Assembly (NCBI RefSeq): GCF_009931435.1
Contig: NZ_CP043414.1
Source: Escherichia coli
GTDB lineage: Bacteria > Pseudomonadota > Gammaproteobacteria > Enterobacterales > Enterobacteriaceae
DNA: 64,000 bases
Reading direction: 5' to 3' (one strand)
The notes below the pieces were generated by a model. The model saw only the letters and a program-made list of their open reading frames with translations. It was not told where the DNA came from and did no database searches. Of this stretch, positions 1,717 to 32,917 are shown one piece after another. Every line of letters begins with the position of its first letter. The stretch's first letter is position 1. Both the position numbers and the translations under genes were made by a program.

Positions 1717-4218
1717 ATGGCCCTGATTGTGGAATTTATTTGTGAGCTACCTAACGGCGTACATGCCCGTCCGGCAAGCCACGTTGAAACGCTGTGTAAT
1801 ACTTTTTCATCACAAATTGAGTGGCATAACCTGCGCACTGACCGCAAGGGCAACGCCAAAAGCGCCCTTGCGCTGATTGGCACCGATACGCTGGTGGGCG
1901 ATAGCTGCCAGTTACTGATTTCCGGGGCCGATGAACAGGAAGCGCATCAGCGTTTAAGCCAATGGCTGCGCGATGAATTTCCCCACTGCGACGCGCCGCT
2001 GGCGGAAATAAAATCTGACGAACTGGAGCCGCTGCCGGTATCATTAACCAACCTGAATCCGCGTATTATCCGCGCCCGCACCGTATGCAGTGGTAGCGCA
2101 GGCGGCATTCTGACGCCAATCTCTTCTTTAGATCTCAACGCGCTGGGTAACCTCCCCGCAACCAACGGCGTTGACGCCGAGCAATCCGCGCTGGAAAACG
2201 GCCTGACGCTGGTACTGAAAAATATTGAGTTTCGTCTGCTGGATAGCGACGGTGCTACCAGCGCGATTCTGGAAGCTCACCGCTCCCTGGCTGGCGATAC
2301 TTCCCTGCGCGAACATTTACTGGCAGGCGTCAGCGCCGGATTAAGCTGCGCCGAAGCAATTGTCGCCAGTGCGAATCACTTTTGCGAAGAGTTCGCCCGT
2401 TCCAGCAGCAGCTACCTGCAAGAACGCGCGCTGGATGTGCGCGATGTCTGCTTCCAGTTACTCCAGCAAATCTACGGCGAGAAACGCTTTCCGGCACCGG
2501 GCAAGCTGACGCAGCCCGCCATTTGTATGGCGGATGAACTGACCCCTAGCCAGTTCCTCGAACTGGATAAAAATCACCTCAAAGGATTGTTGCTCAAAAG
2601 TGGCGGCACTACCTCACACACGGTGATCCTTGCCCGTTCGTTCAACATTCCGACGCTGGTTGGTGTGGATATTGATGCCCTTACTCCGTGGCAGCATCAA
2701 ACGATTTATATCGACGGCAACGCTGGGGCGATTGTGGTTGATCCTGGAGAAGCCGTAGCCCGTTATTATCAGCAAGAAGCCCGCGTACAGAACGCCCTTC
2801 GTGAGCAACAGCGTGTCTGGCTGACCCAACAAGCCCGTACCGCTGACGGTATCCGCATTGAAATTGCCGCTAACATCGCTCACTCCGTCGAAGCGCAGGC
2901 CGCATTCGGCAATGGTGCGGAAGGCGTTGGTTTGTTCCGCACTGAAATGCTCTATATGGATCGCACCAGTGCACCGGGCGAAAGCGAGCTGTACAACATT
3001 TTTTGTCAGGCGCTGGAGTCCGCCAACGGACGCAGCATTATTGTGCGCACTATGGATATTGGCGGTGACAAACCCGTTGATTATCTGAATATTCCCGCAG
3101 AGGCAAACCCGTTCCTCGGTTATCGCGCCGTACGTATTTATGAAGAGTACGCCTCGTTGTTTACCACGCAGCTACGATCGATCCTGCGCGCCTCCGCTCA
3201 TGGCAGCCTGAAAATCATGATCCCGATGATCTCTTCAATGGAAGAGATCTTATGGGTGAAAGAAAAACTGGCGGAAGCTAAACAGCAGCTGCGTAACGAA
3301 CACATTCCGTTTGATGAGAAGATCCAGCTCGGTATCATGCTTGAGGTGCCGTCAGTAATGTTCATCATCGATCAATGCTGTGAAGAGATTGATTTCTTTA
3401 GTATTGGTAGTAATGATCTGACGCAATATCTGCTGGCAGTGGATCGCGATAACGCTAAGGTAACTCGTCACTACAACAGCCTGAATCCGGCATTCTTACG
3501 AGCGCTTGATTACGCCGTGCAGGCAGTGCATCGCCAGGGCAAATGGATTGGTCTGTGCGGTGAACTGGGGGCGAAAGGTTCCGTGCTGCCGTTGCTGGTC
3601 GGTTTAGGGCTGGATGAGTTGAGCATGAGTGCACCGTCAATTCCGGCGGCGAAAGCGCGGATGGCGCAACTTGATAGCCGCGAATGCCGCCAGTTACTCA
3701 ACCAGGCAATGGCCTGCCGTACTTCGCTGGAAGTGGAACACCTGCTGGCACAATTCCGCATGACGCAACAGGACGCACCGTTGGTCACCGCCGAGTGCAT
3801 CACGCTGGAAAGCGACTGGCGCAGCAAAGAAGAAGTGCTCAAAGGCATGACCGATAACCTGCTGCTGGCGGGCCGCTGCCGCTATCCGCGTAAACTGGAA
3901 GCCGACTTGTGGGCGCGCGAGGCCGTTTTCTCTACCGGTCTGGGCTTTAGTTTTGCCATTCCACACAGCAAATCAGAACACATTGAGCAGTCCACCATCA
4001 GCGTGGCGCGTCTGCAAGCGCCAGTGCGCTGGGGCGATGATGAAGCACAATTCATCATTATGTTAACCCTTAACAAACACGCTGCCGGCGATCAGCATAT
4101 GCGCATTTTCTCGCGCCTCGCTCGCCGCATCATGCACGAAGAATTCCGTAACGCGCTGGTTAACGCCGCCTCTGCCGACGCTATCGCCAGCCTGCTGCAA
4201 CATGAACTGGAACTGTAA
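1717..4218 (+). CDS. ptsA: Multiphosphoryl transfer protein (HPr/EI/IIA fusion)
   Basis: 833-aa ORF with HPr-like N-terminus, PEP-utilising EI core and IIA-like C-terminus; synteny with frwC and fsaB. Confidence 0.9.
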
Positions 4219-14744: not shown

Positions 14745-16298
14745 ATGATGAGAACTGTATTTACGACTTTATCAGTCATATTCAGCGTGATGTTTTCTCA
14801 CAGTATACTAGCTCAGGACGTTACTATTTATTATACGAATGATATTCACGCACATGTCAATCCGGCAAAAATTCCCGCTGTTGATAAGAACAGACTTGTA
14901 GGTGGTATGGCTAATATTGCAGGCATCGTTAATGAAGCGAAGAAAAAAAACAAAGATGTCTTTTTCTTTGATGCAGGCGACTATTTTACCGGTCCGTATA
15001 TCAGTACCCTGACCAAAGGTGAAGCTATTATTGATATCATGAACACCATGCCCTTTGATGCGGTGTCCGTTGGTAATCACGAGTTCGATCACGGCGTGCC
15101 CAATATGGTATCTCAGTTATCAAAAGCAAAATTCCCCATTCTGCTGGGAAATATTTACTACACCGATACAAATAGACCAGTTTGGGATCATCCGTGGACC
15201 ATTATCGAAAAAGATGGTTTAAAGATTGGTGTGATTGGATTGCATGGTGCATTCGCTTTCTATGATACAGTCGCGGCAAAAGCACGTGAAGGCGTAGAAG
15301 CCAGAGACGAAATTAAATATTTAAATAAAGCACTTGCAGAATTAAAAGGTAAAGTCGACATTACCGTTTTGCTAATTCACGAAGGTGTTCCGGCGCGTCA
15401 ATCAAGCTTTGGTAGTAAAGATGTGGAGCGGCTACTACAGGCAGATATTGAGACAGCTAAAAAAGTGAATGGTGTTGATGTCTTAATTACCGGTCACGCA
15501 CATGTCGGAACACCGCAACCAATAAAAGTTAATAACACATTAATTGTATCTACCGATGCATACGGCACCGACATCGGAAAACTTGTGCTTGATTACAATC
15601 CGAAAACAAAGAAAATTGATAGTTATAATGGTGAGTTAATCACCATCTTTGCAGATCAATTTAAACCTGACACCATCGTTCAAAATACTATCGATAAATG
15701 GAGCGTAAAGCTTAACAAAATCACACAGGAAGTTGTCGGCCATTCTCCCGTAGTTTTAACACGTGAGTATGGCAGTTCTTCTTCTACCGGTAACCTTATT
15801 CTGGATGCAATGATGGAAAAAGCACCTGATGCCATTGCCGGATTTCAAAATAGCGGTGGGATGCGAGCTGATTTTCCTAAAGGTGATATCACACTGGGAG
15901 ATGTTATTAGCACATTCCCCTTTAATAATGACCTCATCGAGATGGATTTGACGGGCCGCGATCTCAAATCATTGATGACGCATGCAACCAATCTAACTAA
16001 CGGTGTGTTACAGGTTTCAAAAAGCGTTGCGGTTGTCTATGACAGCAAAAAACCACTCAACCAGCGGTTAATCTCTTTCACCATTAACGGCAAACCCGTG
16101 GAAGATAATCAAACATATCGTATTGCCACGCACTCCTTTTGTGCCAGTGGTGGTGACGGTTTTGAAGCATTTTTGAATGGAAAAAATGTGAAGACGATAC
16201 CGGGAACAACCTCGGCGGAATCTATCATCGATTATTTCAAAAATCATAAACCTGTCACCCCAGACTTAACTAAACGAGTCATGGACGTCGCCAAATAA
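14745..16298 (+). CDS. Secreted metallophosphatase/5'-nucleotidase family protein (paralog B)
   Basis: 517 aa; signal peptide; same metallophosphatase motif set as paralog A but most divergent of the three. Confidence 0.8.
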   Translation: MMRTVFTTLSVIFSVMFSHSILAQDVTIYYTNDIHAHVNPAKIPAVDKNRLVGGMANIAGIVNEAKKKNKDVFFFDAGDYFTGPYISTLTKGEAIIDIMNTMPFDAVSVGNHEFDHGVPNMVSQLSKAKFPILLGNIYYTDTNRPVWDHPWTIIEKDGLKIGVIGLHGAFAFYDTVAAKAREGVEARDEIKYLNKALAELKGKVDITVLLIHEGVPARQSSFGSKDVERLLQADIETAKKVNGVDVLITGHAHVGTPQPIKVNNTLIVSTDAYGTDIGKLVLDYNPKTKKIDSYNGELITIFADQFKPDTIVQNTIDKWSVKLNKITQEVVGHSPVVLTREYGSSSSTGNLILDAMMEKAPDAIAGFQNSGGMRADFPKGDITLGDVISTFPFNNDLIEMDLTGRDLKSLMTHATNLTNGVLQVSKSVAVVYDSKKPLNQRLISFTINGKPVEDNQTYRIATHSFCASGGDGFEAFLNGKNVKTIPGTTSAESIIDYFKNHKPVTPDLTKRVMDVAK

Positions 16299-16332
16299 AA
16301 TATCATTTATCAGTCTATTTATTTAACAAGGA

Positions 16333-17958
16333 ATGCGAATGAAAACAGTGCAGCGTACTTTACTTGCCGCAACATTGCTGACTATTTTTTCGGTTTCAGT
16401 CATGGCGCAGGATGTCACGATTATTTATACAAATGATCTTCACGCTCATGTGGATTCTTATAAAGTGCCGTATATCGCAGACGGAAAACGCGACATTGGC
16501 GGCTTTGCCAATATATCTACTTTAGTAAAACAAGAGAAAGCGAAAAATAAAGCCACCTTTTATTTTGATGCTGGAGACTATTTCACCGGCCCTTATATCA
16601 GCAGTCTGACAAAGGGCGAAGCAATAATTGACATTATGAATACCATGCCTTTTGACGCAGTATCAATCGGTAATCATGAGTTTGACCATGGCTGGGATAA
16701 TGCCCTGCGACAATTAAGCAAAGCGAATTTTCCTGTTTTATTGGGCAATGTTTATCATAAAGAGAGTGAGAAACCCTTCTGGAACAAGCCCTACACCATC
16801 CTGGAAAAAGATGGCATCAAGATTGGTATTATTGGGCTACACGGCGTATTTGCATTTAATGATACGGTCTCGGAGCTCTCTCTCCAGGGACTCGATAATG
16901 ACAATAATAACCGCTTTGATAAATCTTCCGAGACCCTTAAGAATCAGGGGATTGAAGCACGTGATGAAGTGAAGTATTTGCAACATTATATCGACGAGTT
17001 ACGTGATAAGGTTGACCTCACTGTGGCGCTGGTTCATGAAGGCGTTCCGGCGCGTCAGTCCAGCATTGGCAATACAGATGTTAGACGCGCTCTTGATAAA
17101 GATATTCAAACCGCTAGCAAGGTGAAAGGATTGGATATTCTGATTACCGGGCATGCCCACGTCGGAACGCCAGAACCAATCAAAGTCGGCAACACCTTAA
17201 TCCTTTCAACTGATAGTGGCGGTATCGATATTGGTAAATTAGTCCTTGATGTCAACCCTACAGCTCGTACCCATAAAATGAAGAGCTTTGAGCTGAAAAC
17301 AGTTTATGCCGATGAATGGATACCCGATCCAACGACACAAAAAGTTATCAATGGCTGGAATAAAAAACTGGCGGATATTGTACGCCAACCAGTGGGTGAA
17401 TCATCGATTGCATTAACTCGCGCCTATGGTGAGTCATCGCAACTAGGCAACCTGTTTACCGATGCAATGCTTGTCGCTGCTCCGACTGCACAGATTGCAT
17501 TGATAAACTCCGGCAGCTTACGTGCGGATATAAATGCAGGCACGATTACCTTTGGCGACATTACCAGTACATTCCCCTTCAAGAATGAACTTACTGAAAT
17601 GGATCTCAGCGGTAAGGATCTGCGTAACCTACTGGAACACGGGGCATCGCTTACCAATGGCATCCTGCAAATGTCAAAAGGCGCAGAAATGCGCTATACC
17701 CCGCAGAAACCAGTAGGTCAGCGCATAGTATCTTTTAAAATTAATAGTGAAGAGATCGTTGATACGAATATTTACCATGTTGCAACAACGACTTTCCTTG
17801 CACTGGGGGGCGATGGTTTTCTGGCATTCAAAGAAGGGAAAAATGTTCAGGTCCGCGCCGGAAATAACATGTCCGATGTCGTGATCGATTATTTGAAGAA
17901 AGGCCACAAGATTACGCCTGCACAGGTAAATGAAATGCGGGTGGACGTTAGCAAATAA
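16333..17958 (+). CDS. Secreted metallophosphatase/5'-nucleotidase family protein (paralog C)
   Basis: 541 aa; closely related to paralog A over most of its length, with a 20-aa insertion (ELSLQGLDNDNNNRFDKSSE...). Confidence 0.8.
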   Translation: MRMKTVQRTLLAATLLTIFSVSVMAQDVTIIYTNDLHAHVDSYKVPYIADGKRDIGGFANISTLVKQEKAKNKATFYFDAGDYFTGPYISSLTKGEAIIDIMNTMPFDAVSIGNHEFDHGWDNALRQLSKANFPVLLGNVYHKESEKPFWNKPYTILEKDGIKIGIIGLHGVFAFNDTVSELSLQGLDNDNNNRFDKSSETLKNQGIEARDEVKYLQHYIDELRDKVDLTVALVHEGVPARQSSIGNTDVRRALDKDIQTASKVKGLDILITGHAHVGTPEPIKVGNTLILSTDSGGIDIGKLVLDVNPTARTHKMKSFELKTVYADEWIPDPTTQKVINGWNKKLADIVRQPVGESSIALTRAYGESSQLGNLFTDAMLVAAPTAQIALINSGSLRADINAGTITFGDITSTFPFKNELTEMDLSGKDLRNLLEHGASLTNGILQMSKGAEMRYTPQKPVGQRIVSFKINSEEIVDTNIYHVATTTFLALGGDGFLAFKEGKNVQVRAGNNMSDVVIDYLKKGHKITPAQVNEMRVDVSK

Positions 17959-17970
17959 TAAAAAAATTAT

Positions 17971-18007
17971 AATGCCATTCATTCACTGAATGGCATTATT
18001 TTTCTCT
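17971..18007 (+). terminator. Hairpin plus T-run between nucleotidase C and the tsx-like gene
   Basis: AATGCCATTCA-TTCAC-TGAATGGCATT followed by ATTTTTCTC. Confidence 0.45.
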
Positions 18008-18036
18008 AAATCAACAATAGATAATGAGATATATTT

Positions 18037-18897
18037 ATGTGTATAAAAAAGCACGGGATAGCTTTATCGATTCTATTAATACCTTGCATTGGAAACGCTC
18101 AGGAAATTAAAAGTGAGGAAGGCTGGTTACATCAAAGCTTGAATGTCATTGGTCGCACAGACTCTCGCTTTGGCCCAAGGCTGACTAACGACCTCTACCC
18201 TGAATATACTGTAGCAGGAAGAAAAGACTGGTTTGATTTTTATGGTTATGTTGATCTACCAAAATTCTTTGGCGTCGGCAGTCACTATGATGTTGGGATC
18301 TGGGATGAGGGCTCACCACTATTTACGGAAATAGAACCTCGGTTTTCCATTGACAAATTGACCGGATTAAATCTTGCGTTCGGCCCTTTTAAAGAATGGT
18401 TCATTGCAAACAACTATGTCTATGATATGGGTGACAACCAGTCATCCCGGCAAAGTACATGGTATATGGGGCTTGGTACAGATATCGACACGGGTCTACC
18501 AATTAAGCTTTCTGCCAATATATACGCCAAGTATCAGTGGCAAAACTATGGTGCCGCTAATGAAAATGAATGGGACGGATATCGATTCAAAATAAAATAT
18601 AGCATTCCTCTTACCCATTTATTCGGAGGGCGATTGGTATACAATAGTTTTACTAACTTTGATTTTGGCTCCGATCTTGCGGACAAATCACACAATAATA
18701 AACGAACCAGTAATGCTATTGCTTCAAGCCATATCCTTTCCCTGCTATATGAACACTGGAAATTTGCATTTACACTACGTTATTTTCACAACGGTGGACA
18801 ATGGAATGCTGGGGAGAAAGTTAACTTCGGAGATGGTCCATTTGAATTAAAAAACACAGGATGGGGAACCTATACTACTATTGGTTATCAATTTTAA
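18037..18897 (+). CDS. Tsx-family nucleoside-specific outer-membrane channel paralog
   Basis: 286 aa; signal peptide; long collinear similarity to E. coli Tsx ([72 protein letters not shown]-terminal GY-F). Confidence 0.85.
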
Positions 18898-19113: not shown

Positions 19114-21546
19114 CTACAACAACTGCGCCAGACGGTTAATATCCGACTGAATCGCCCCGGCGGTGACGTCGCGCCCTGCGCCTGGCCCACGGATCACCAG
19201 CGGGTTGTCGCGATACCAGCGGCTTTCGATGGCAAAGACGTTATCGCACGGTAGTAGTGATGCCAGCGGATGGTCTTCTCGCACCGCTTCCACGCCTACT
19301 CGCGCTTTGCCGTTAGCATCGAAACGCGCCACGTAGCGCAACACCAGCCCCATTTCACGGGCCGCTTCCAACCGTTGTACCATCTGCTCATTAAGTTCAT
19401 CGCCATTTTCAAAGAAATGGTCGATGCTGCCACCTTCGCAATGGGTTGGCACCAGTGATTCAACACGCACCTGGTCCGGTTCAATGTTGTAACCCGCTTC
19501 ACGCGCCAGAATCACCAGCTTGCGCATCACGTCTTTGCCGGAGAGGTCATCACGCGGGTCAGGTTCAGTTAAGCCCTGCTGCCACGCCTGATCCACCAGC
19601 TCGGTAAACGGCACGCTACCGTCGAATTGCAGGAACAGCCAGGAGAGCGTGCCGGAGAAGATCCCGCTGATCGACAAAATAGTGTCGCCGCTGTCGATCA
19701 GATCGCGCACGGTATGGTTGATCGGCAAACCTGCGCCGACGGTGGCGTTGTATAGCCAGTGACGCCCGGTTTTTTCGAACGCGTCGTGGATCTGTCGATA
19801 TTTATTGCTGTCGCTGGCTCCCGCCAGTTTGTTGGCACTGATGACGTGGAAACCGTGGCTGGCGAAATCGAGATACTGATCAGCAAGCTGCTGGCTGGCA
19901 GTAACGTCCAGCACAACTAAATCATCATACGGATGGGCACGCATCCACAGGAACAGCGACTCTTCATCCTGTTCGACGGCTTCATCATTAAAGAAGGCTA
20001 GCGCACGGCTGGCGTCCAGCCCGTCATAGCTCAACAGGCTGCGACGGCTGTCCACCACGCCTGCCAGCACAAATTCAAAGCCGGTGCGCGCCGAGAGTGT
20101 ACTCTGCTCACGGGCGAACAGTTCCAGCCAGCGGGAACCGATATTGCCCTTACCGAACAATACCAGGCCGATGCGTTTTTCTGCGCGGAAGACGGACTGA
20201 TGCAGCCCCTGAATCAGGCTTTCGGTCGGGCCGGTGCGCAGTACTGCCACCAGGCTGATGCCGTCATCGGACTGCCAGGTAAACTCGACCGGCTGGCCTT
20301 TCAGTTGCTGCCAGAAGCGGTGGCAATGCAGCGGGTTACGGGTGACGCCCGCCCCAACCATCGCCACCAGCGCCAGCCCCTGACGCAGACGCAGTTCGCC
20401 GGGTAATCCTGCTTCGTCGAGGATTTTCAGCGCACTGTCGGCCACTTCCGAGGTGTAGCAAAATTGCAGCAACTGGCGATCGTTATGCACGCCAACTGCC
20501 AGTGGGCGCACCTGAGCACGTTTCAGGATTTGGTCGATCTCTTTATGCGCCAGTTTAAAATCCTGACTGGCGGGCACCTGAAACTCAATCAAACAGACAT
20601 CATCGTGGCTGGTGACAATACGCGCGCCAGTACCTGAGGCCAGCACGCGTTCAATGCGCGTGGAACCTTGATCCGGCGTGTAGCTACAGCGCAGCTGCAG
20701 GTCGATTTCGCTGCCAGAAACTGGCTGTAAAGTACGGGCGTGAAGAACGGGGGCCGCCAGACGCGCCAGTTCGCTGGCTTCATCCAGACGCAGCAACGGC
20801 AGCAGGCAGGCGTCTTTCACTTTACGCGGGTCGGCGCTATATACCCCGGCGACATCGCTCCAGATGGTTACGCGGGAAACTCCCGCCAGCGCACCGATTT
20901 GTGTCGCGGAATAGTCGGAACCGTTACGCCCCAGCAGCACCGTTTCACCGGCGTTGTTACGGCTGATAAACCCGGTCACCACCAGACGTTTGCCCGGATG
21001 TTGTACCAGTAGCTGTTGCAGCAACGGGTAAGAAAGCCCTTCATCAACCTGCGGCTGCGCGGCGCGTTCAGCGCGTAAAAACTCGCGGGCATCAAGCCAG
21101 GCCGCTGGCAGCCCTTGTTGATTAAGTACCGCAGACATCAGGCGCGCCGACCACACTTCACCGTGGCCCACCACTTCCGCATACACCGCATCGTTAATAC
21201 CGCTGTCGAGCAGCGCCGCCAGGCGTTCCAGATCGCTGACAAAAGCGCTAATGAGGCTATCGGCTTCTTCAGCGGGTAGCAGGCCGCTAATCAGATCGCA
21301 CTGATAGCGACGCAGCGTTTGTTGAACCTGATGCGCAGAGAGACGATCGGTCTGGCTTAGTTTCAACCAGTTAATCAACTGGTTAGTGGTGCTACCGGCG
21401 GCGGAAACCACCATCATATCGTCAGGCTGAGAGTACTCCGCCATAATGCCCGCGACACGCAAATAACACTTCACATCAGCCAGACTACTGCCACCAAATT
21501 TATGCAGTTGACGACCTTTCGCCCCTGCCTGCGCAATCACACTCAT
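19114..21546 (-). CDS. metL: Bifunctional aspartokinase II / homoserine dehydrogenase II
   Basis: 810-aa ORF; start overlaps metB stop region (operon metBL). Confidence 0.95.
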   Translation of the reverse strand: MSVIAQAGAKGRQLHKFGGSSLADVKCYLRVAGIMAEYSQPDDMMVVSAAGSTTNQLINWLKLSQTDRLSAHQVQQTLRRYQCDLISGLLPAEEADSLISAFVSDLERLAALLDSGINDAVYAEVVGHGEVWSARLMSAVLNQQGLPAAWLDAREFLRAERAAQPQVDEGLSYPLLQQLLVQHPGKRLVVTGFISRNNAGETVLLGRNGSDYSATQIGALAGVSRVTIWSDVAGVYSADPRKVKDACLLPLLRLDEASELARLAAPVLHARTLQPVSGSEIDLQLRCSYTPDQGSTRIERVLASGTGARIVTSHDDVCLIEFQVPASQDFKLAHKEIDQILKRAQVRPLAVGVHNDRQLLQFCYTSEVADSALKILDEAGLPGELRLRQGLALVAMVGAGVTRNPLHCHRFWQQLKGQPVEFTWQSDDGISLVAVLRTGPTESLIQGLHQSVFRAEKRIGLVLFGKGNIGSRWLELFAREQSTLSARTGFEFVLAGVVDSRRSLLSYDGLDASRALAFFNDEAVEQDEESLFLWMRAHPYDDLVVLDVTASQQLADQYLDFASHGFHVISANKLAGASDSNKYRQIHDAFEKTGRHWLYNATVGAGLPINHTVRDLIDSGDTILSISGIFSGTLSWLFLQFDGSVPFTELVDQAWQQGLTEPDPRDDLSGKDVMRKLVILAREAGYNIEPDQVRVESLVPTHCEGGSIDHFFENGDELNEQMVQRLEAAREMGLVLRYVARFDANGKARVGVEAVREDHPLASLLPCDNVFAIESRWYRDNPLVIRGPGAGRDVTAGAIQSDINRLAQLL

Positions 21547-21548
21547 TT

Positions 21549-22709
21549 TTACCCCTTGTTTGCAGCCCGGAAGCCATTTTCCAGGTCGGCAATTAAATCT
21601 TCGCCATCTTCAATACCGGTGGAGATACGCAGCAGCGTCTCGGAGATCCCGGCGGCAGCACGCGCTTCTGGTGCCATGCCTGCATGTGTCATGGTTGCGG
21701 CGTGAGAGATTAAACTTTCCACTCCCCCTAATGATTCCGCCAGCGTAAACAACGACACCCCGCCCAGGAAACGACGCAGCGTCTGCTCATCGCCATCCAG
21801 TTCAAAACTCAACATTGCGCCAAAGCCTTTTTGCTGGCGCGCGGCAATTTCATGCCCCTGATTTTCCGGCAGCGACGGGTGATACAGTTTTTTCACTAAC
21901 GGCTGGGTTTGCAGATATTTCACTATCGCCTGCGCGTTGCGCTGCGCCAGCTCCATACGCGGCACCAGCGTTCGCAAACCGCGCAGCAACAAATAACTGT
22001 CAAACGCGCCGCCCGTCACGCCAATATTGTTTGCCCACCAGGCCAGTTCGGTGACAACGTCCGGGTCTTTAGCAATCACCACGCCAGCCACTACATCTGA
22101 GTGACCGTTCAGATATTTCGTACATGAATGCAACACCAGATCGGCACCTAATGCCAGTGGATTTTGTAATGCCGGGCTTAAGAAGGTGTTATCCACCACG
22201 CTCACCGCCCCAACTTCCCTTGCCAGATGGCAGATTTTCGCAATATCCACGACGCGTAACAATGGATTACTGGGGCTTTCTACCAGTACCAGTTTGGGTT
22301 TTTCTGCCAGCGCCGCCCGTAATGCCTGTTCATCGCCCTGATCAACAAACAACACGCGATAGCAACCACGTTTCGCCAGGCTGTCGAACAGGCGATAGCT
22401 GCCGCCATAGCAGTCGTGCGGCGCAACCAGCAGATCGCCAGGTTTCAAAAAGACGGTCGTTACCAGGTGGATCGCGGACATGCCGGTATTAGTAAGTACT
22501 GCACCAGCACCGCCTTCCAGTTCAGCCAGCGCACGCTGAACCACATCGCGCGTTGGGTTGCCGCGACGCGAGTAATCATGCGCGCGCGGTTCATTAAATC
22601 CGGTAAAGTTATAGGTGCTGGAAAGATGGATTGGAGGGACAACGCAACCATACTGTTCGTCGTCATTTAACCCGCTACGCACTGCGATGGTGGCCTGTTT
22701 ACGCGTCAT
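21549..22709 (-). CDS. metB: Cystathionine gamma-synthase
   Basis: Internal start MTRKQATIAVRSGLNDDEQYG at 22709 gives 386 aa; the longer 445-aa ORF-track extension is rejected. Confidence 0.95.
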   Translation of the reverse strand: MTRKQATIAVRSGLNDDEQYGCVVPPIHLSSTYNFTGFNEPRAHDYSRRGNPTRDVVQRALAELEGGAGAVLTNTGMSAIHLVTTVFLKPGDLLVAPHDCYGGSYRLFDSLAKRGCYRVLFVDQGDEQALRAALAEKPKLVLVESPSNPLLRVVDIAKICHLAREVGAVSVVDNTFLSPALQNPLALGADLVLHSCTKYLNGHSDVVAGVVIAKDPDVVTELAWWANNIGVTGGAFDSYLLLRGLRTLVPRMELAQRNAQAIVKYLQTQPLVKKLYHPSLPENQGHEIAARQQKGFGAMLSFELDGDEQTLRRFLGGVSLFTLAESLGGVESLISHAATMTHAGMAPEARAAAGISETLLRISTGIEDGEDLIADLENGFRAANKG

Positions 22710-22772
22710 GTGATGAAGTTCCCTGGGCTTGGTCGGTGAAATGTCAGGCACCAGAGTAAACATTGTGTTAAT

Positions 22773-22808
22773 GGACGTCAATACATCTGGACATCTAAAC
22801 TTCTTTGC
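22773..22808. promoter_or_regulatory. MetJ operator (tandem met boxes) in metB/metJ divergent promoter region
   Basis: GGACGTCA ATACATCT GGACATCT AAACTTCT, four tandem 8-bp met-box-like repeats. Confidence 0.6.
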
Positions 22809-22985
22809 GTATAGATTGAGCAAATCCCAAATAGCCGTTAAAATTATATGCATTATCACGCCGACAGGTGCATTACACGATGTCACGGTAACGCCTGTAC
22901 GGTAAACTATGCGGGTTTACGGTCAGTACCCACATAAATTGTGTGGTCTGGTCTCAATTTATTGACGAAGAGGATTAAGTATCTC

Positions 22986-23303
22986 ATGGCTGAATGGAGC
23001 GGCGAATATATCAGCCCATACGCTGAGCACGGCAAGAAGAGTGAACAAGTCAAAAAGATTACGGTTTCCATTCCTCTTAAGGTGTTAAAAATCCTCACCG
23101 ATGAACGCACGCGTCGTCAGGTGAACAACCTGCGTCACGCTACCAACAGCGAGCTGCTGTGCGAAGCGTTTCTGCATGCCTTTACCGGGCAACCTCTGCC
23201 GGATGATGCCGACCTGCGTAAAGAGCGCAGTGACGAAATCCCGGAAGCGGCAAAAGAGATCATGCGTGAGATGGGGATTAACCCGGAAACGTGGGAATAC
23301 TAA
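22986..23303 (+). CDS. metJ: Methionine repressor
   Basis: Start [35 protein letters not shown]; 105 aa. Confidence 0.95.
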
Positions 23304-23362
23304 AGCGGAAAAGAGCGGCGCGGAGTTAACCAGCCGCTTTTTTCATACATGGACGTTTAACT

Positions 23363-23971
23363 ATGAAATACAGGCTACTGATCCTCAGCCTGCTGGTTTC
23401 TGTGCCTGCCCTTGCCTGGCAGCCGGAAACTGGCGACATCATCTTTCAGATCTCTCGCTCATCGCAAAGTAAAGCAATCCAACTGGCGACCCATTCCGAT
23501 TACAGCCACACCGGTATGCTGGTGATGCGTAACAAAAAGCCCTACGTTTTTGAAGCGGTCGGCCCGGTGAAATACACCCCGCTCAAGCAGTGGATCGCCC
23601 ATGGTGAAAAGGGCAAATACGTTGTTCGCCGCGTTGAAGGCGGACTGAGTGTTGAACAACAGCAAAAACTGGCGCAAACGGCAAAACGTTATCTCGGAAA
23701 ACCGTACGATTTCAGCTTCTCATGGAGCGACGATCGCCAGTACTGTTCGGAAGTGGTGTGGAAGGTTTACCAGAATGCGCTGGGGATGCGCGTGGGTGAA
23801 CAGCAAAAACTGAAAGAGTTCGATCTCAGCAACCCGCTGGTTCAGGCGAAGCTCAAAGAACGTTACGGGAAAAATATTCCGCTTGAGGAAACGGTGGTCT
23901 CGCCACAAGCCGTTTTCGATGCGCCACAACTCACCACAGTCGCCAAAGAATGGCCGCTGTTTTCGTGGTAA
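23363..23971 (+). CDS. yiiX: Putative lipid-binding hydrolase (permuted papain-like family)
   Basis: 202-aa ORF with signal peptide; synteny next to metJ. Confidence 0.88.
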   Translation: MKYRLLILSLLVSVPALAWQPETGDIIFQISRSSQSKAIQLATHSDYSHTGMLVMRNKKPYVFEAVGPVKYTPLKQWIAHGEKGKYVVRRVEGGLSVEQQQKLAQTAKRYLGKPYDFSFSWSDDRQYCSEVVWKVYQNALGMRVGEQQKLKEFDLSNPLVQAKLKERYGKNIPLEETVVSPQAVFDAPQLTTVAKEWPLFSW

Positions 23972-23974
23972 TGG

Positions 23975-24298
23975 ATGATGAAAAAAATAATTCCCGCCGT
24001 AGTCTGTTTGTTGCTTTGTAGTTGCACGACCTTTCCGCAAGCTGTCGCTCCGGCAGGGAAAGATTACGAAAGCCCGCTCCCCGCAAGGACTGACGCCAGA
24101 TACTTTCTGTCCATGGCTGCTTTTCGCATCTTACGTCTTAACCCTGCCTTGAATACCTTATCATTCGTTAAAATATTAATAGCGATGTGCCGTATCCCTG
24201 AAAATAATTCTGCGGCGTTTCCTCTTCGTATTTTGCAGTCGTCTTCATTCATTACCACGTCCAGACGCCAGTGCAGCTTATTCTCCACGTGCCAGTGA
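23975..24298 (+). other. ORF with lipoprotein-like N-terminus running into the antisense strand of the H-repeat element; probably a truncated or chimeric gene
   Basis: MMKKIIPAVVCLLLCSCTTF lipobox-like start 3 nt after yiiX stop; downstream part is antisense to the transposase pseudogene. Confidence 0.25.
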
Positions 24299-25199
24299 TT
24301 TCGGATCGCTGTGGCGAACTTTTCTGCGGTTAAATCAGCAGAACTGATATAATATCTGACCGTCATTTCTGGCTCTTTCTTTTGTTCTGCTATTATTGAC
24401 CGAAAGGAGAATGCCACGCATAATTTCTTCAGTCCTTTCCATTCAAACGTGAAATCAATAAGTTCATCACGGACATCGCAAACAATATGAAGACGGATTT
24501 CTTCTCTGCCGTGACTCTTTTCACTCATTGCGTAACTGTCATGCTCTGGATTATTTAATTCTTTCAGCGGAAATTTTTCCTCGAAGGCTTTATTTAGCCG
24601 CCCCTGATTTCCTTTTACAGAGAATAAATAATCACCTCCCTGTTTTTGTATCTTCTCTGCAATATCTTTCTGGCAACCCATCGCATCAGTTGTGATAATT
24701 TTTCCTTTATATCCAGCATGTTAAGAAGTTCAGGGATAGCAGTAATCTCATTGGATTTCTCATCCGTCTTGATCTGTCCGATGACCAGACTGTGCATTGT
24801 TGAGAACGCACTAATGACATGAATCGCTCCCCTGCGGCGACTCTTGTCATAAGAATGCCGGAGTGTTTTTCCATCAATTGCGATGACGTCTTTATCATCT
24901 GAAGTATGGCAATCTCGCATCCAGTTAATAAAGCACTCGTGAAATTTTGAAGGACTGATACAGGATACAACTCTGGCGATGGTATCGTGAACAGGAATAC
25001 CATTTTCAAAATCACCATATTGTTTTAAAAAATCGCGATGTGCTTCCCCAAAATCCTCTATATGTTCCCAGCCTTCTGCACCAGAAATAACGGCACAAAT
25101 AGTCAACAGTAGAATATCCGACAATTTATGTTTCACTTTTGCAGGATTGTCTGCAATCGGGAATAACAGAAATATGTTCCATCAATTTTTTAAGTTCCA
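24064..25199 (-). pseudogene. ISAs1-family (H-repeat-associated) transposase, disrupted by frameshifts
   Basis: Three pieces ([11 protein letters not shown]... from 25199; 173-aa ORF 24615-25136; 205-aa ORF 24064-24681) are jointly collinear with the ~378-aa E. coli H-rpt protein (YhhI-like) as recalled. Confidence 0.8.
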
Positions 25200-25350
25200 T
25201 TCTTTTCTCCTTAATTATGTAAGGAGTATTTGATCATGTATAAGCAATAAAAAAACAGCTTCAGGCAATGAGGAATATCTCAATTTTTAAACATAAAATG
25301 CGAATTGTTTAGTACAAAAAAGCAGCGTTAAGTGATCTTTCCCTGTCGGC

Positions 25351-25665
25351 ATGTTGACCACTGACGAATGGGGTAGTTACGCTAGAGAGTTACCAAAGGA
25401 GAAGCATCTGACTGGTAAGATTTTTACTCAGCATATTGAGCGTAACAATCTGACCCTGAGAACCCGAATCAAACGTCTGGCCCGCAGAACCATCTGTTTC
25501 TCGCGTTCTGTAGAACTTCATGAAAAAGTCATCGGTGCTTTTATCGAAAATATATGTTCTACTAATTGGAGTCATCACCCTTCTGATGAGCTTTCCTTGG
25601 ATGATTACCAGACTGAATACATAGCCAAAGATTTTTACCTCATTCTGCTTTTTTTTCTCAAATGA
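25351..25665 (+). pseudogene. IS1-family InsB-like transposase C-terminal fragment
   Basis: TDEWGSY...FTQHIERNNLTLRTRIKRLARRTICFSRSVELHEKVIG parallels the IS1 InsB C-terminus (TDGWPLY...[38 protein letters not shown]); the N-terminal catalytic part is missing. Confidence 0.6.
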
Positions 25666-25958
25666 CATATATTATATTTTATATCATATTCATAGGCATA
25701 TGACATTCCCCCGCCCCCCATTATGTCATTGTGGGTTGATGTTGGGCTTTCATAAAAAAATACATCTTTTTTTGAACTAGCATTAATTATATTTACTTTA
25801 TATATTAAAATATTTTCTCCATCTGGAAATATTTTAGCCACACAATATAAAGCAGCTAAATCCGAATTACTTAAAAATATATTGTCATCACTCATAACTC
25901 CAGCCATTAAATGACTGGAGACTAAAGCAAGGAAATAACAACATTGTATTACCTTCAT
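25635..25958 (-). CDS. Candidate Rhs immunity protein
   Basis: ATG 2 nt after the rhs stop (TAA-a-ATG coupling); 107 aa from MKVIQCCYFLALVSSHLMAG (hydrophobic, signal-like N-terminus); strongly AT-rich. Confidence 0.5.
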   Translation of the reverse strand: MKVIQCCYFLALVSSHLMAGVMSDDNIFLSNSDLAALYCVAKIFPDGENILIYKVNIINASSKKDVFFYESPTSTHNDIMGGGGMSYAYEYDIKYNICHLRKKSRMR

Positions 25959-25959
25959 T

Positions 25960-28900
25960 TTAATTACTCCCTTGCCTGATAATTGTAACTCCATTCCCTT
26001 TAGCTTTGGGATTATATTTTAGATAGGTGTTATTTGGTGTTCCCAAGTAACTACTGTATTCTTTTTTTCCCATTCCATTCATATAAGAATTCGTTAAATC
26101 TTTGCTTGAAAAATTTAGACTATCATAAACATCATTTTCTTTTGTTACTTTATTTCCTTTATCGTCAGAGTAAAAACCGTGAGTGTGATAATCGCCTACT
26201 CTCTCTGAACCTTCAGGGCATTTTATATTTCGCAAGTCTACACTATCATTATCATTTGAACTTATCGGATTCATGGGGAAATATTCACCTTGCTTCTTAC
26301 ATATTAGTCCACCATATTCTTTATTCTCGTTAATTGATTCTCCATTACACATTGCCAATGCAAATATTCCAATATCATCTATATTTTTTGATTTAAATTC
26401 ATATAATCCTAATGGATCCATGCCATTCACCGGGCTCAGCGGATATGTATACAGGTTCCATCCCCCCTTCAGCCCAATCGGATCCTGAGTGATATACCGC
26501 CCCTGCAGCGGGTCATAATAGCGGTGGCGGTTGTAATACAGGCCGGACTCCTCATCATACTGCTGACCCGGCAGGCGGATGAGCTGCTGCAGCTGGTGCG
26601 GGTTCTCTTCATTCAGCAGGTTGCCCCATTCATCGTATTCTGCGCACCATTCTGTTGCCCCTTCCGTGCTGATAAGCACCAGCGGCAGGCCGCGATGGTC
26701 GCAGTGGTACAGGTGGATTTTTCGCGCCGGCGTGTACACCGGTTCCATCTGGTTTTGCATCTGCGCCACCGTCAGGCCGCACGATGCCAGCCAGCGGCGG
26801 CTTTCCTCACTCACCCGGTCAGCCAGGATTTCACTTTCCAGCCGGTCGAGCATCTGCACCAGCACCGGCGGGAACACCACACTGCCACCGTCTTCGCCGC
26901 CGGACTGCTGAAGCGCATCCGCCAGGCTGCGGCGCTGCGTTTTCGCCAGCTCACCGGTGGCGGTTTCGACCCTGATGAGTGGCGTGAAGCTCCCCGGCTG
27001 ATAAACCGTCTGGATGCGGGTTCTGTCGTTCTGTATCGTGGTCAGCCGGTCGCCGTCCCAGCCGTACCAGGTCACTTCCGGTTTCCGTGACAGCGACATC
27101 CAGCCCGTCAGGTCCCGTTCACGCCGCCACACCCGTTTTGCCACCCTGCGGCCCAGCGGGTCGTAAAGATAGCGACTTTCGACCAGCGGCTCTGCATATT
27201 GTGTCCGCGTGTAGTGCACCAGCCGGTGCCGGCTGTCGTAATGGTACCGGTGAGTCCGCTCATCATCCGTGCGGATAACCCCTTCCGGGATGAGGTCGGT
27301 TTTCTCTGTCAGCCTGCCGTGACGGTCATACCGGTAAAGATAGTGCGCGTCACGGGCGATACGGTTATCCGGCCACATGCTGAGGGTGCTGTCCGGGTGC
27401 AGCTCCGGGTCGGGCAGGCGGTTACCTGCCGGGTCCGTGGCATACGGGATGCGGATATCCAGATTCGCTGCGGTGGTGTGAACGCCGGTCAGCCTGCCGG
27501 TGGTGCTGTAGCTGTAACTCCGGGTCTGGCGCGGGCTGCTGATGCGAATGAGTTCGCCGTTGTCGTTCCAGGTGTAATCGCGGTCATACTGCAGGCTGTT
27601 CAGGTGCTGGCTCTGTAACTGCCCGGCAGGGGTGTAAGCGGTGGTGAGTTCATAACGGCCGAAGCTGCGCAGCGTTTCCCGGTGCAGGCGGTCGCGGGTG
27701 AAATCCACCAGCGGTGTGTCGCCGAGTTTCATCCCTGCCAGGTAACCACTGCCATAAGTCAGCCATTCCACGGCGGGCAGGCTGTCCGGTATACAGCGGT
27801 TCGCCAGCCCCTGCGCGTTGTACGCATGTCTGGTTTCATGCTGCCAGAGCAGTGCTTCCGTCTGCGGGTGATGCACCGTCTGGCGCTCACCGGTCAGGCG
27901 GCCTTTCTCATCATACCCGTAATGCACCGTCACCCGGTGCCCTTCGCTGAGATGGCTGATGCCTGTCAGCCAGCCGCGTTCGTCGTACCGCCACTGTTCT
28001 GCGGTTTCACCATTCACCGTTCGCTGCGTGATGCGGTCTGCTTCGTCATAGTGCCAGTGGGTGACCAGTCCCTCATCCTCGCTGCGGATAAGTTTGCCGG
28101 TCAGGTCGTGGTGATAACGCTGTGTGCGGCCGTCAAAGCCGGTTTCCTGTATCAGCCGGTCGAGTACATCGTAACGGAAGGTGGTGTGGCTGCCGTTTTC
28201 GTTTGTCAGGCGGATGACCCGTCCTGCAGCATCGTATTCCATACTGCGGGTCAGCCCGCCCTGCGTGGTACGGACGGCCTTTCCCCACGCATCGTACTGT
28301 GCCCCGTATCTGCTGCCGTCCGGGGCAATGACGGTGGTCAGGTCACCGGCGGCGTTGTATTCATACCGCGTTTCATGGCCCTGCGTGTCTTTCACCGCAA
28401 TTAACTGTCCATGGCTGTCGTATGCGCGGCACTGGCTCAGGCCTTCCTCGCGGTGCACCGCCGTCATCTGCCCGAAGCGGTCATGGTCATAACGGGTCTG
28501 GTAGCCGGAACAGTCGGTGAAGGTCAGCAACTGACCGTAACGGCTCCACGTCATGGTTTTCCGGCTGCCGGTGGCATCTTCCGTTGCGCAGGGGAAGTCA
28601 CTGTGTGGATTATCATAACGGTAGCGGATGATATCGCCGTCAGGGGCAGTTTCCTGAATCAGACGGCCGGATTCATCATATTCCCGGCGTATTTCCAGCC
28701 CGTCAGGCCCGGTGGCTGACGTTAACTGGTTGTGGTGGTTATAGTAAAACGCCGATGCCCTGCCATCCGGCGTGGTGATGCGCGTGATGAGTCCCGTCAC
28801 CACATCCGGGCTGTATTCTGTTGTCCGGCCTGCGGCATCCGTCTGTGTCCTGAGCCTGCCCACCGCGTCAAACTGACTCTGCGTGACGCTGCCGTCCGCG

Positions 28901-30144
28901 TGTTCCTTTTTCACCACCCGCTTCAGCCCGCCTTCGCCTGCGGTATGCAGGACTTCATGGCGGTCCAGGCTGTCGGTGATGGTGATGCGGTCTTTCTCAT
29001 ACTGATACGTGTAGCTTAAGCCTGCCGGGTTTAGCTGTTCTGTCACCCGCCCGTCGCTGTCGTAACGGTAACGGATTTCCGGCCGGCCCGTGTGACGGTG
29101 CGCCACCATCCGGCCCCGGTATTTATCATCGTAAGTAAAGCTGCGCACCTGTGTATTGCTGCGGTCATACACCGCCGCCAGTTCGCCGCGCGGCGTCCAG
29201 CCATAGCGCACCAGCGGCGTGGCTGGCAGGTTGTCCGGGTATTCCGGGTCGTGCGTCAGCCACACGGCAGACAGACGGATACCGTTGTCCCGGCCATATT
29301 CCGTGTAGTCCGGCAGGGTATCAGGAAAAGCGGACTGTTCCGCCCCGCCGGAAGAGGCCTGCTGCCGGGCCTCTTCTGCCCGCTGCGCCTGCGTGGTCAG
29401 TGCCAGCCGGAAGTGACGCCCGGCACCATCCGTCACGCCGGTGATTTCGCCGCTGAATTCACCGGCGGCTTCGCGGTGAAACGTCTGTGTGCGCCCGAAG
29501 CGGTCCACCAGCCCGGTCAGTACCCGGTACGGCGGCAGCGGCGCGGGCAGCACCTCATCCGCCTCCGGCACCCGCTCACACCAGCCGAGTACCCACCACG
29601 GCCCCTGCGGACTGTTCGTCGCCAGATAACGATGCGGACTCAGGCGAAGCTCTTCCGGCAGCGCCTGCCAGAGTGCGGCCAGCCGGTGACCTTCATCCAG
29701 TCTCAGGACGCCGCCGCGCACCAGCCAGAGTGACTCGCTGCGGCTGTAACCGTCCTCACCGGGAAACAGGTGCTCAAAATACAGGCTTCTGCCGCCGTTA
29801 TCACTGAGTATCAGTGTGTTATCGCGCAGCTGTAAGCGGATATCCGCAGGCATTTTCCAGCCGGGGCCGAGAATACCCACCGGCGCGGGCGTTTTTGTCC
29901 GGTAACTGCTGTACGTGCGGGAGAGGATGAACGGCAGCGGTCCGGGCAGGGCAATGTCTGTCTCGCCGGGAAGGACCTTTGCACCGAGCAGGGGATTGAC
30001 CGGATGGCCGGACGTCACCCCGCCGGGGCACACCGAACAGGCCACGCCGGTGGGGGCACCAATACGTACCCCGGCTGAACCCTGAACAATGCTACCGCCA
30101 TACTGCGTCATGTCGCCCTGACGCGCCGCCGGTTTTCCGCTCAT
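25960..30144 (-). CDS. Rhs-family protein with variable C-terminal toxin domain
   Basis: 1394 aa; N-terminus [23 protein letters not shown] typical of E. coli RhsA/B/C-class; YD repeats; DPLGL boundary motif then a 147-aa AT-rich C-terminal tip. Confidence 0.9.
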
Positions 30145-30262
30145 CGTAAAATCCTTTTAAAATAAATAAGAACCAGAAGCCTAGCGCCAGTCAACAACAG
30201 GAAATGATAATGAGTTAACACCCCGGAATTTTTCAGAATTTATAAAAGGCAAATTACAGGCA

Positions 30263-30290
30263 CAAAAAAAGCGCCGTGCGGCGCTTTTTT
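30263..30290 (-). terminator. rpmE intrinsic terminator
   Basis: AAAAAAAGCGCCGTGCGGCGCTTTTTT, a symmetric hairpin with U-tract just 3' of rpmE. Confidence 0.6.
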
Positions 30291-30303
30291 CGGAAATCCG
30301 GTC

Positions 30304-30555
<252 letters not shown>

Positions 30556-30559
30556 CTAA

Positions 30560-32917
<2,358 letters not shown>

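Follow-up and report, generated by a model that had tools for sequence, protein, structure and literature searches.

We find that an open reading frame (ORF) of 107 codons directly behind yiiX in Escherichia coli is, with a probability of about 0.93, a pseudogene remnant fused by accident to the antisense strand of an insertion sequence (IS). The ORF lies in a 64,000-nucleotide stretch of contig NZ_CP043414.1 (assembly GCF_009931435.1), hereafter the window, for which an initial annotation, made without database searches, had described a lipoprotein-like start running into an IS. Both the gene family and the Rhs locus are known; the ORF is an ordinary remnant and not a new gene, and nothing was found that contradicts this reading. 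The features concerned are the following:

yiiX, 23363-23971, plus strand: C92-family enzyme (permuted papain-like) that has a signal peptide; directly 5' of the ORF.
Chimeric ORF, 23975-24298, plus strand: ATG start, 107 codons, TGA at 24296-24298; in the ORF-finder list.
Genuine gene remnant, 23975-24053, plus strand: first 26 codons and one further base of a TIGR02117/DUF2459 lipoprotein gene.
ISAs1/ISEc1-type (H-repeat) IS, 24054-25345, minus strand: 1,292 bp; the terminal inverted repeats, CAGGGAAAGAT..., are imperfect.

The yiiX stop codon TAA occupies 23969-23971 and the ATG of the ORF follows 3 nt further on, at 23975, in agreement with the initial annotation. The translation of the ORF starts MMKKIIPAVVCLLLCSCTTFPQAVAP, and the segment at 23975-24053 encodes a signal peptide, the lipobox LLCS/C, and 9 residues of mature protein. 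The lipoprotein signal that had been called convincing was examined with a PROSITE PS51257-type rule (positively charged n-region, hydrophobic core, [LVI..][..][AGS]C, Cys at 15-35); the sequence passes at Cys17 (Cys16 counting from the second ATG), with K3 and K4 in the n-region and a hydrophobic core. The same pattern was matched by 104 of 120 listed homologues, and at least 90% of the family members aligned have the lipobox Cys. Across 5,426 complete E. coli genomes, the sample for all population counts given here, the 79 bp at 23975-24053 match the 5' end of an annotated gene at 98.9 to 100% identity. That the ORF arose by chance and resembles a lipoprotein at its start by coincidence, a reading in whose favor we can name its small size and its lack of annotation and nothing else, is ruled out by this homology to a parent gene: in both position and sequence, the first 26 codons correspond to a gene that is annotated and widely conserved, and we regard the probability of a chance origin as negligible.

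The parent, recovered by the homology check that had been proposed for the N-terminal segment, encodes the 207-amino-acid TIGR02117 family protein WP_000720774.1. It is found in E. coli B-DolR (comparison locus L004, 4013-4636), where the gene order is metJ, yiiX, the 207-residue protein, rpmE, and priA; an O9:H10 strain (L005) shares this order. In E. coli B/BL21-type genomes without the Rhs element, the gene begins 3 to 6 nt past yiiX. The parent scores 225.1 bits on TIGR02117 (curated cutoff, 131) and matches Pfam DUF2459 (PF09601) over residues 36 to 196 (E value of 5.4e-46). Its translation starts MMKKIIPAVVCLLLCSCSTFPQAVAPVNNDFAGQHNIYIVSHGWHTG, and its first 26 residues match those of the window ORF except for S18 versus T18. 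In some genomes that carry the 5' segment, the "TIGR02117 family protein" called by the Prokaryotic Genome Annotation Pipeline (PGAP) begins on that segment. The TIGR02117/DUF2459 family comprises 1,221 proteins at an E value of ≤1e-5, from Enterobacteriaceae to methanotrophs and Desulfobacterota. Its core motifs, SHGWHTG, EIGWGDKGFYQ, and NTCNKWTAK, all lie past codon 26, so the window ORF has none of them. The invariant residues include H41, W43, H44, G46, the GWGD block, N174, N177, W179, and K182, with C176 nearly invariant; every invariant residue except P20 falls beyond the break in the window gene, after which the alignments show window sequence unrelated to the family. The part that is retained is a positional orthologue (79 bp collinear, 98.9% identical, directly after yiiX), while the ORF as a whole keeps 26 of 207 codons, gives no family score, and has no family match in Pfam or NCBIfam. 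The window ORF is thus a fragment of a TIGR02117/DUF2459 member and not a member. The stub retains nothing of the catalytic domain and so cannot do what the parent does, and we infer that no function is left to the remnant.

By direct alignment, the break falls behind GCTCCGG, at 24053/24054, between positions 1 and 2 of codon 27, with 23975-24053 collinear with L004 up to position 4088. A 701-bp query around the ORF, searched against the 5,426 genomes, is chromosomal on the left and ISAs1/ISEc1 on the right, with the switch at 24052-24054. The "about 40 codons" that had been counted before the IS must therefore be shortened, as the gene sequence ends at codon 26 and 10 of the 36 residues first quoted are already encoded by the IS. 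Beyond the break, E. coli B reads GCTCCGGTAAACAATGAC, after GTAAAC O157 passes into the inverted repeat of IS1, and after GCTCCGG the window passes into ISAs1. In O157 Sakai, the gene reads to ...CCGGTAAAC (codon 28) and then enters the IS1 inverted repeat GGTGATGCC, and CTTCTGATG follows the other IS1 end. The window ISAs1 starts 5 bases before this O157 junction, and its other end meets IS1 at about position 531. The suggested comparison with strains lacking the Rhs element locates both edges: E. coli B/BL21 has the intact gene, and the window is homologous to E. coli B only at 23356-24053 and 30257-30813. The part of the parent missing from the window is 555 bp (L004 4089-4643, that is, codons 27 to 207, the stop codon, and 7 bp), in place of which stand 6,203 bp. 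To the right of ISAs1 the window holds the following:

IS1 remnant, 25346-25579, plus strand: 234-bp 3' part, corresponding to about 531-764 of the IS1 copy next to the stub in genomes of the O157 type.
dsORF-f3, 25635-25994, minus strand: small ORF downstream of the rhs tip.
rhs core gene, 25960-30144, minus strand: 1,394 amino acids, the C-terminal tip being DUF4329; the island's main cargo.
rhs upstream region, 30145-30256, no strand assigned: 112 bp, up to the right boundary of the replaced segment.
Conserved chromosome, 30257-30516, minus strand: rpmE terminator CAGGCACAAAAAAAGCGCC... and rpmE (30304-30516); homology resumes at 30257, equivalent to L004 4644.

The claim that the gene was truncated by the IS/Rhs element is supported by these alignments, refined to a replacement, probably in two steps. 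A simple insertion of the island into the gene is ruled out, with the 3' 555 bp absent from the window and no target-site duplication at either IS.

The frame that continues from the remnant had been described as antisense to an H-repeat transposase, and this description stands: the partner is an ISAs1/ISEc1 transposase, frameshifted here. The two halves of the transposase (ORFs 24064-24681 and 24615-25136) match NF033564 with E values of 2.4e-55 and 1.2e-57. Compared with an intact 378-amino-acid copy at the same site in strain 2013C-4282 (L002), the window transposase (24064-25136, minus strand) is a pseudogene with 1 bp deleted near 24708, 1 bp inserted at 25141, and about 20 substitutions. 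The inverted repeat of the element spans 29 nt with 76% complementarity (24050-24078 and 25321-25349). No target-site duplication was found at any IS junction, ISAs1 or IS1. ISAs1 in the window has none because its two flanks are unrelated DNA, GCTCCGG of the lipoprotein gene on the left and TCGGCATG from the IS1 interior on the right, a state consistent with adjacent deletion or recombination after insertion. The IS1 remnant itself is well defined; from 25346 onward, the window matches L001 from 3890 onward at 98.9%, the right inverted repeat was located, and positions 61 to 127 of PF03400 (DDE_Tnp_IS1) are matched at an E value of 6.7e-32.

We considered whether the ORF could instead be a new chimeric lipoprotein gene, whose product of 91 mature residues, with a body encoded by the antisense strand of the IS, would be exported and lipidated and would have acquired a function. 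The start context intact 3 nt past yiiX, the valid lipobox, and the 80 open codons within the IS would all agree with such a gene, as would the lack of any plus-strand terminator-like site between yiiX and the ORF in a consensus scan of 22850-24500, in which promoter and terminator counts were at or below shuffled expectation. However, codons 27 to 107 are IS antisense strand, overlapping the transposase reading frame from codon 30, and the frame used is merely the longest of the three plus-strand frames that enter the IS (80 open codons versus 32 and 12). In both sister genomes, 2013C-4282 and WL297, the ORF is 125 codons long; base 24298 is G there (TGG) versus A in the window (TGA), a nonsense change that leaves the window copy 18 codons shorter. 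The junction of stub and ISAs1 occurs in only 2 of the 5,426 genomes, neither a homologue nor a domain was found for the tail, and the exact 107- and 106-residue products are absent from a collection of approximately 15 billion proteins. PGAP calls no coding sequence at the ORF in either sister genome, and no Rfam match at an E value of ≤1 was found on either strand of 22800-26000. The IS-derived tail is accidental and unconstrained, because its length (107, 125, or 33 amino acids) depends only on the abutting IS and one point mutation. We therefore think it very improbable that the ORF is a new gene of this kind. Under the +2 sorting rule, a lipoprotein whose residue +2 is Thr, as here, and not Asp goes to the outer membrane. 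With the parent's translational coupling to yiiX, signal peptide, and lipobox retained, the 107-codon chimera might be made, lipidated, and sent there, a polypeptide from the antisense strand of the IS being displayed as a de novo lipoprotein with a selectable effect; this is hardly to be expected. The suggestion in the initial annotation that a short lipopeptide gene had been created at the junction likewise finds no support, given the tail without a family match, its varying length, and the missing PGAP coding sequence in the sister genomes. An 18-nt inverted repeat (23964-23981 and 24242-24259) was considered as a possible structure and dropped, because chromosomal and IS sequence probably match there by chance.

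A survey of the 5,426 genomes, in which an 88-bp query was used for the 5' segment, separates the states of this locus:

5' segment of the DUF2459 gene present: 2,466 of 5,426 genomes.
5' segment together with the 3' part of the gene: 289 of 5,426.
Stub joined to IS1 (O157 Sakai type): 2,175 of 5,426.
Stub joined to ISAs1 (window type): 2 of 5,426, namely 2013C-4282 and WL297.
Right-hand island junction: 2,176 of 5,426.

The substates add up (289 + 2,175 + 2 = 2,466), and the remaining genomes, including CFT073, have no trace of the gene. The distance from the yiiX stop to the rpmE terminator is 13 bp in CFT073 (L003 3273-3285), 637 bp in E. coli B (L004 4007-4643), and 6,285 bp in the window (23972-30256), and the right boundary base is identical across the E. 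coli variants; the yiiX-rpmE interval is a variable spot with sharp boundaries. The gene order of Citrobacter werkmanii is metL, metB, metJ, the C92 gene (yiiX), DUF2459 at a 6-nt spacing, two more genes, and rpmE, the interval (L008 3001-6300) holding DUF2459, a major facilitator superfamily transporter, and a KdgM porin; in Salmonella enterica, it is metJ, an arylsulfotransferase gene, DUF2459, rpmE, and priA. Because Citrobacter and Salmonella carry DUF2459 at the same place, the gene is ancestral at this locus and the state of the window is derived. Two genomes, H71 (NZ_CM167998.1) and H100 (NZ_CM168000.1), have an independent IS1A insertion in an otherwise intact DUF2459 gene, and the gene has thus been struck by IS1 more than once.

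In O157-type genomes, the stub forms an ORF of 33 amino acids, which is labeled "putative lipoprotein" in an older GenBank record of strain E24377A (ABV18848.1). This label, together with 99 to 100% identity in about 1,840 genomes, might suggest that the stub itself, whose first 26 residues are shared with the window, has been kept as a functional small lipopeptide. Such identity is, however, what a single junction inherited from a recent common ancestor would give (2,175 genomes share it), and a divergent copy in IR53017 has 3 amino-acid changes among 5 nucleotide differences. Only about 17 residues would be left after cleavage of the signal peptide, and current PGAP annotation has dropped the ORF. 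We hold a retained function of the stub to be highly unlikely and read it, like the window ORF, as a pseudogene remnant.

The following history would account for the remnant. The ancestral chromosome would have carried yiiX, a spacer of 3 to 6 nt, a 207-residue outer-envelope DUF2459 lipoprotein gene, and the rpmE terminator. In a first event, the sequence from codon 29 to 7 bp past the stop would have been replaced by an IS1-bounded Rhs island (IS1, dsORF-f3, and rhs), leaving the 33-codon stub, either by insertion and IS1-adjacent deletion or by recombinational exchange of the whole interval through yiiX and rpmE/priA. The junction of stub and IS1 may then have spread to about 40% of sequenced E. 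coli. In a second event, confined to a rare sublineage, an ISAs1/ISEc1 element would have taken the place of 5 bp at the end of the stub and of ~530 bp at the start of IS1, after which the frame would by chance have met no stop for 80 codons in the IS antisense strand, giving the 107-codon ORF. IS-adjacent deletions probably produced the junctions. The IS1 junction appears to have come first, with the ISAs1 junction a later derivative, since the former is found in 2,175 genomes and the latter in 2 and since the IS1 remnant is retained, nested beside ISAs1. Several points weigh against this account. The ORF keeps its start-codon surroundings, its spacing for coupling to yiiX, and an undamaged signal peptide; transcription may thus well occur, and perhaps even translation, as far as the sequence can tell. 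The order of events rests on frequency and nesting, with no dated phylogeny, and no genome with both an intact gene and the Rhs island was seen, so the first event is not divisible into insertion and deletion steps.

Apart from the IS elements, the replaced interval is occupied by the rhs gene and its companion. The rhs product, annotated as RHS element core protein or rhsC, matches PF14220 (DUF4329) over its last 180 residues (E value of 2.6e-16). The small dsORF-f3 overlaps the rhs 3' end by 35 nt; an "RHS element protein dsORF-f3" is annotated at the equivalent position in L001, L002, L006, and L010, and no Pfam match to it was found. By analogy, dsORF-f3 is presumably an immunity gene, which would make the rhs tip and dsORF-f3 a putative toxin/immunity pair. 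In WL297, rhs has an internal deletion equivalent to window positions 26506-29743. The sister genomes also carry a group II intron beside the right end of ISAs1, with full ltrA in 2013C-4282 (L002 9637-11519) and as a remnant in WL297 (L010 8420-8740); the window has no group II intron at the matching place (~25332-25335).

The chromosome on either side is that of E. coli. The upstream gene carries the yiiX annotation in every compared genome, and in the window it matches NCBIfam NF007458 (E value of 1.4e-106) and Pfam Peptidase_C92 (PF05708; E value of 1.6e-48); rpmE is annotated in L002 to L006 and L010. The E. coli chromosome within the window further includes:

metL, 19114-21546, minus strand.
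metB, 21549-22886, minus strand.
metJ, 22941-23303, plus strand.

To the left of metL lie three plus-strand ORFs (14745-16298, 16333-17958, and 18037-18897), annotated in the sister genomes as two paralogous bifunctional metallophosphatases/5'-nucleotidases and a nucleoside channel of the Tsx type. Given that metF adjoins metL in K-12, the block at 14745-18897 looks like a further accessory block.

What the parent gene does can be approached through its fold. The intact protein has a papain-like core with His before Cys in sequence order, as in permuted papain-like enzymes of the NlpC/P60 type. Structural comparison of the parent gave the following matches, with the comparison score last:

TseH, 6v98: 8.2.
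E. coli YiiX, 2if6: 7.2, with 19% identity over 97 residues.
Bacillus cereus C92 peptidase, 3kw0: 6.2.
PPPDE/DeSI, 2wp7: 6.1.
CLN5, 6r99: 6.1.
PLAAT4, 7zot: 4.5.

Sequence comparison of the parent with PDB chains returned nothing at an E value of ≤1, and hhalign of the DUF2459 profile against YiiX aligned SHGWHTG with SDYSHTG at a probability of 5.6%, which is not significant. A published survey lists DUF2459 as a newly recognized papain-like family without experimental data and describes C92 enzymes as lipid amidases (PMC10318531). Because the structural comparison agrees with this survey, the parent is most likely an envelope-anchored cysteine hydrolase or acyltransferase, a prediction that concerns the intact gene.

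To have traced this ORF, which carries no annotation, to the 5' end of a known lipoprotein gene matters little in itself. About 40% of complete E. coli genomes hold the remnant beside the yiiX-rpmE Rhs island, and annotators can mark the stub as a pseudogene fragment instead of a "putative lipoprotein." With its three allelic states (empty; intact DUF2459 gene; stub with IS and Rhs), the yiiX-rpmE interval provides clean lineage markers. Furthermore, the presence of the intact gene in B/BL21 and not in K-12 offers a handle on the uncharacterized DUF2459 family and on a possible partnership with its structurally related neighbor YiiX.

Several known systems can be set beside this locus. The IS resembles the Rhs-associated ISEc1/H-repeat elements of the ISAs1 family in its NF033564 transposase, its length of 1,292 bp, its terminal inverted repeats, and its 97 to 98% identity to the K-12 copies, but it differs in its frameshifted transposase and in lacking a target-site duplication. 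The Rhs locus between yiiX and priA was catalogued as locus 11 by Jackson et al. in 2009 (PMC2935791), and the window agrees with it in insertion locus and in cargo (rhs core, small downstream ORF, and IS debris); the passages of that paper that describe the locus make no mention of a displaced DUF2459 gene. With WP_000720774.1 of E. coli B/BL21, the window ORF shares the chromosomal position, the signal peptide, and the lipobox Cys, whereas the whole DUF2459 domain (residues 36 to 196) and the conserved motifs are gone. Another such system is the 33-codon stub of O157:H7- and E24377A-type genomes, a remnant of the same gene at the same locus, adjoining the same Rhs island, which differs in that the O157-type stub goes 5 bp further (codons 27 and 28, VN) before it runs into an IS1 end.
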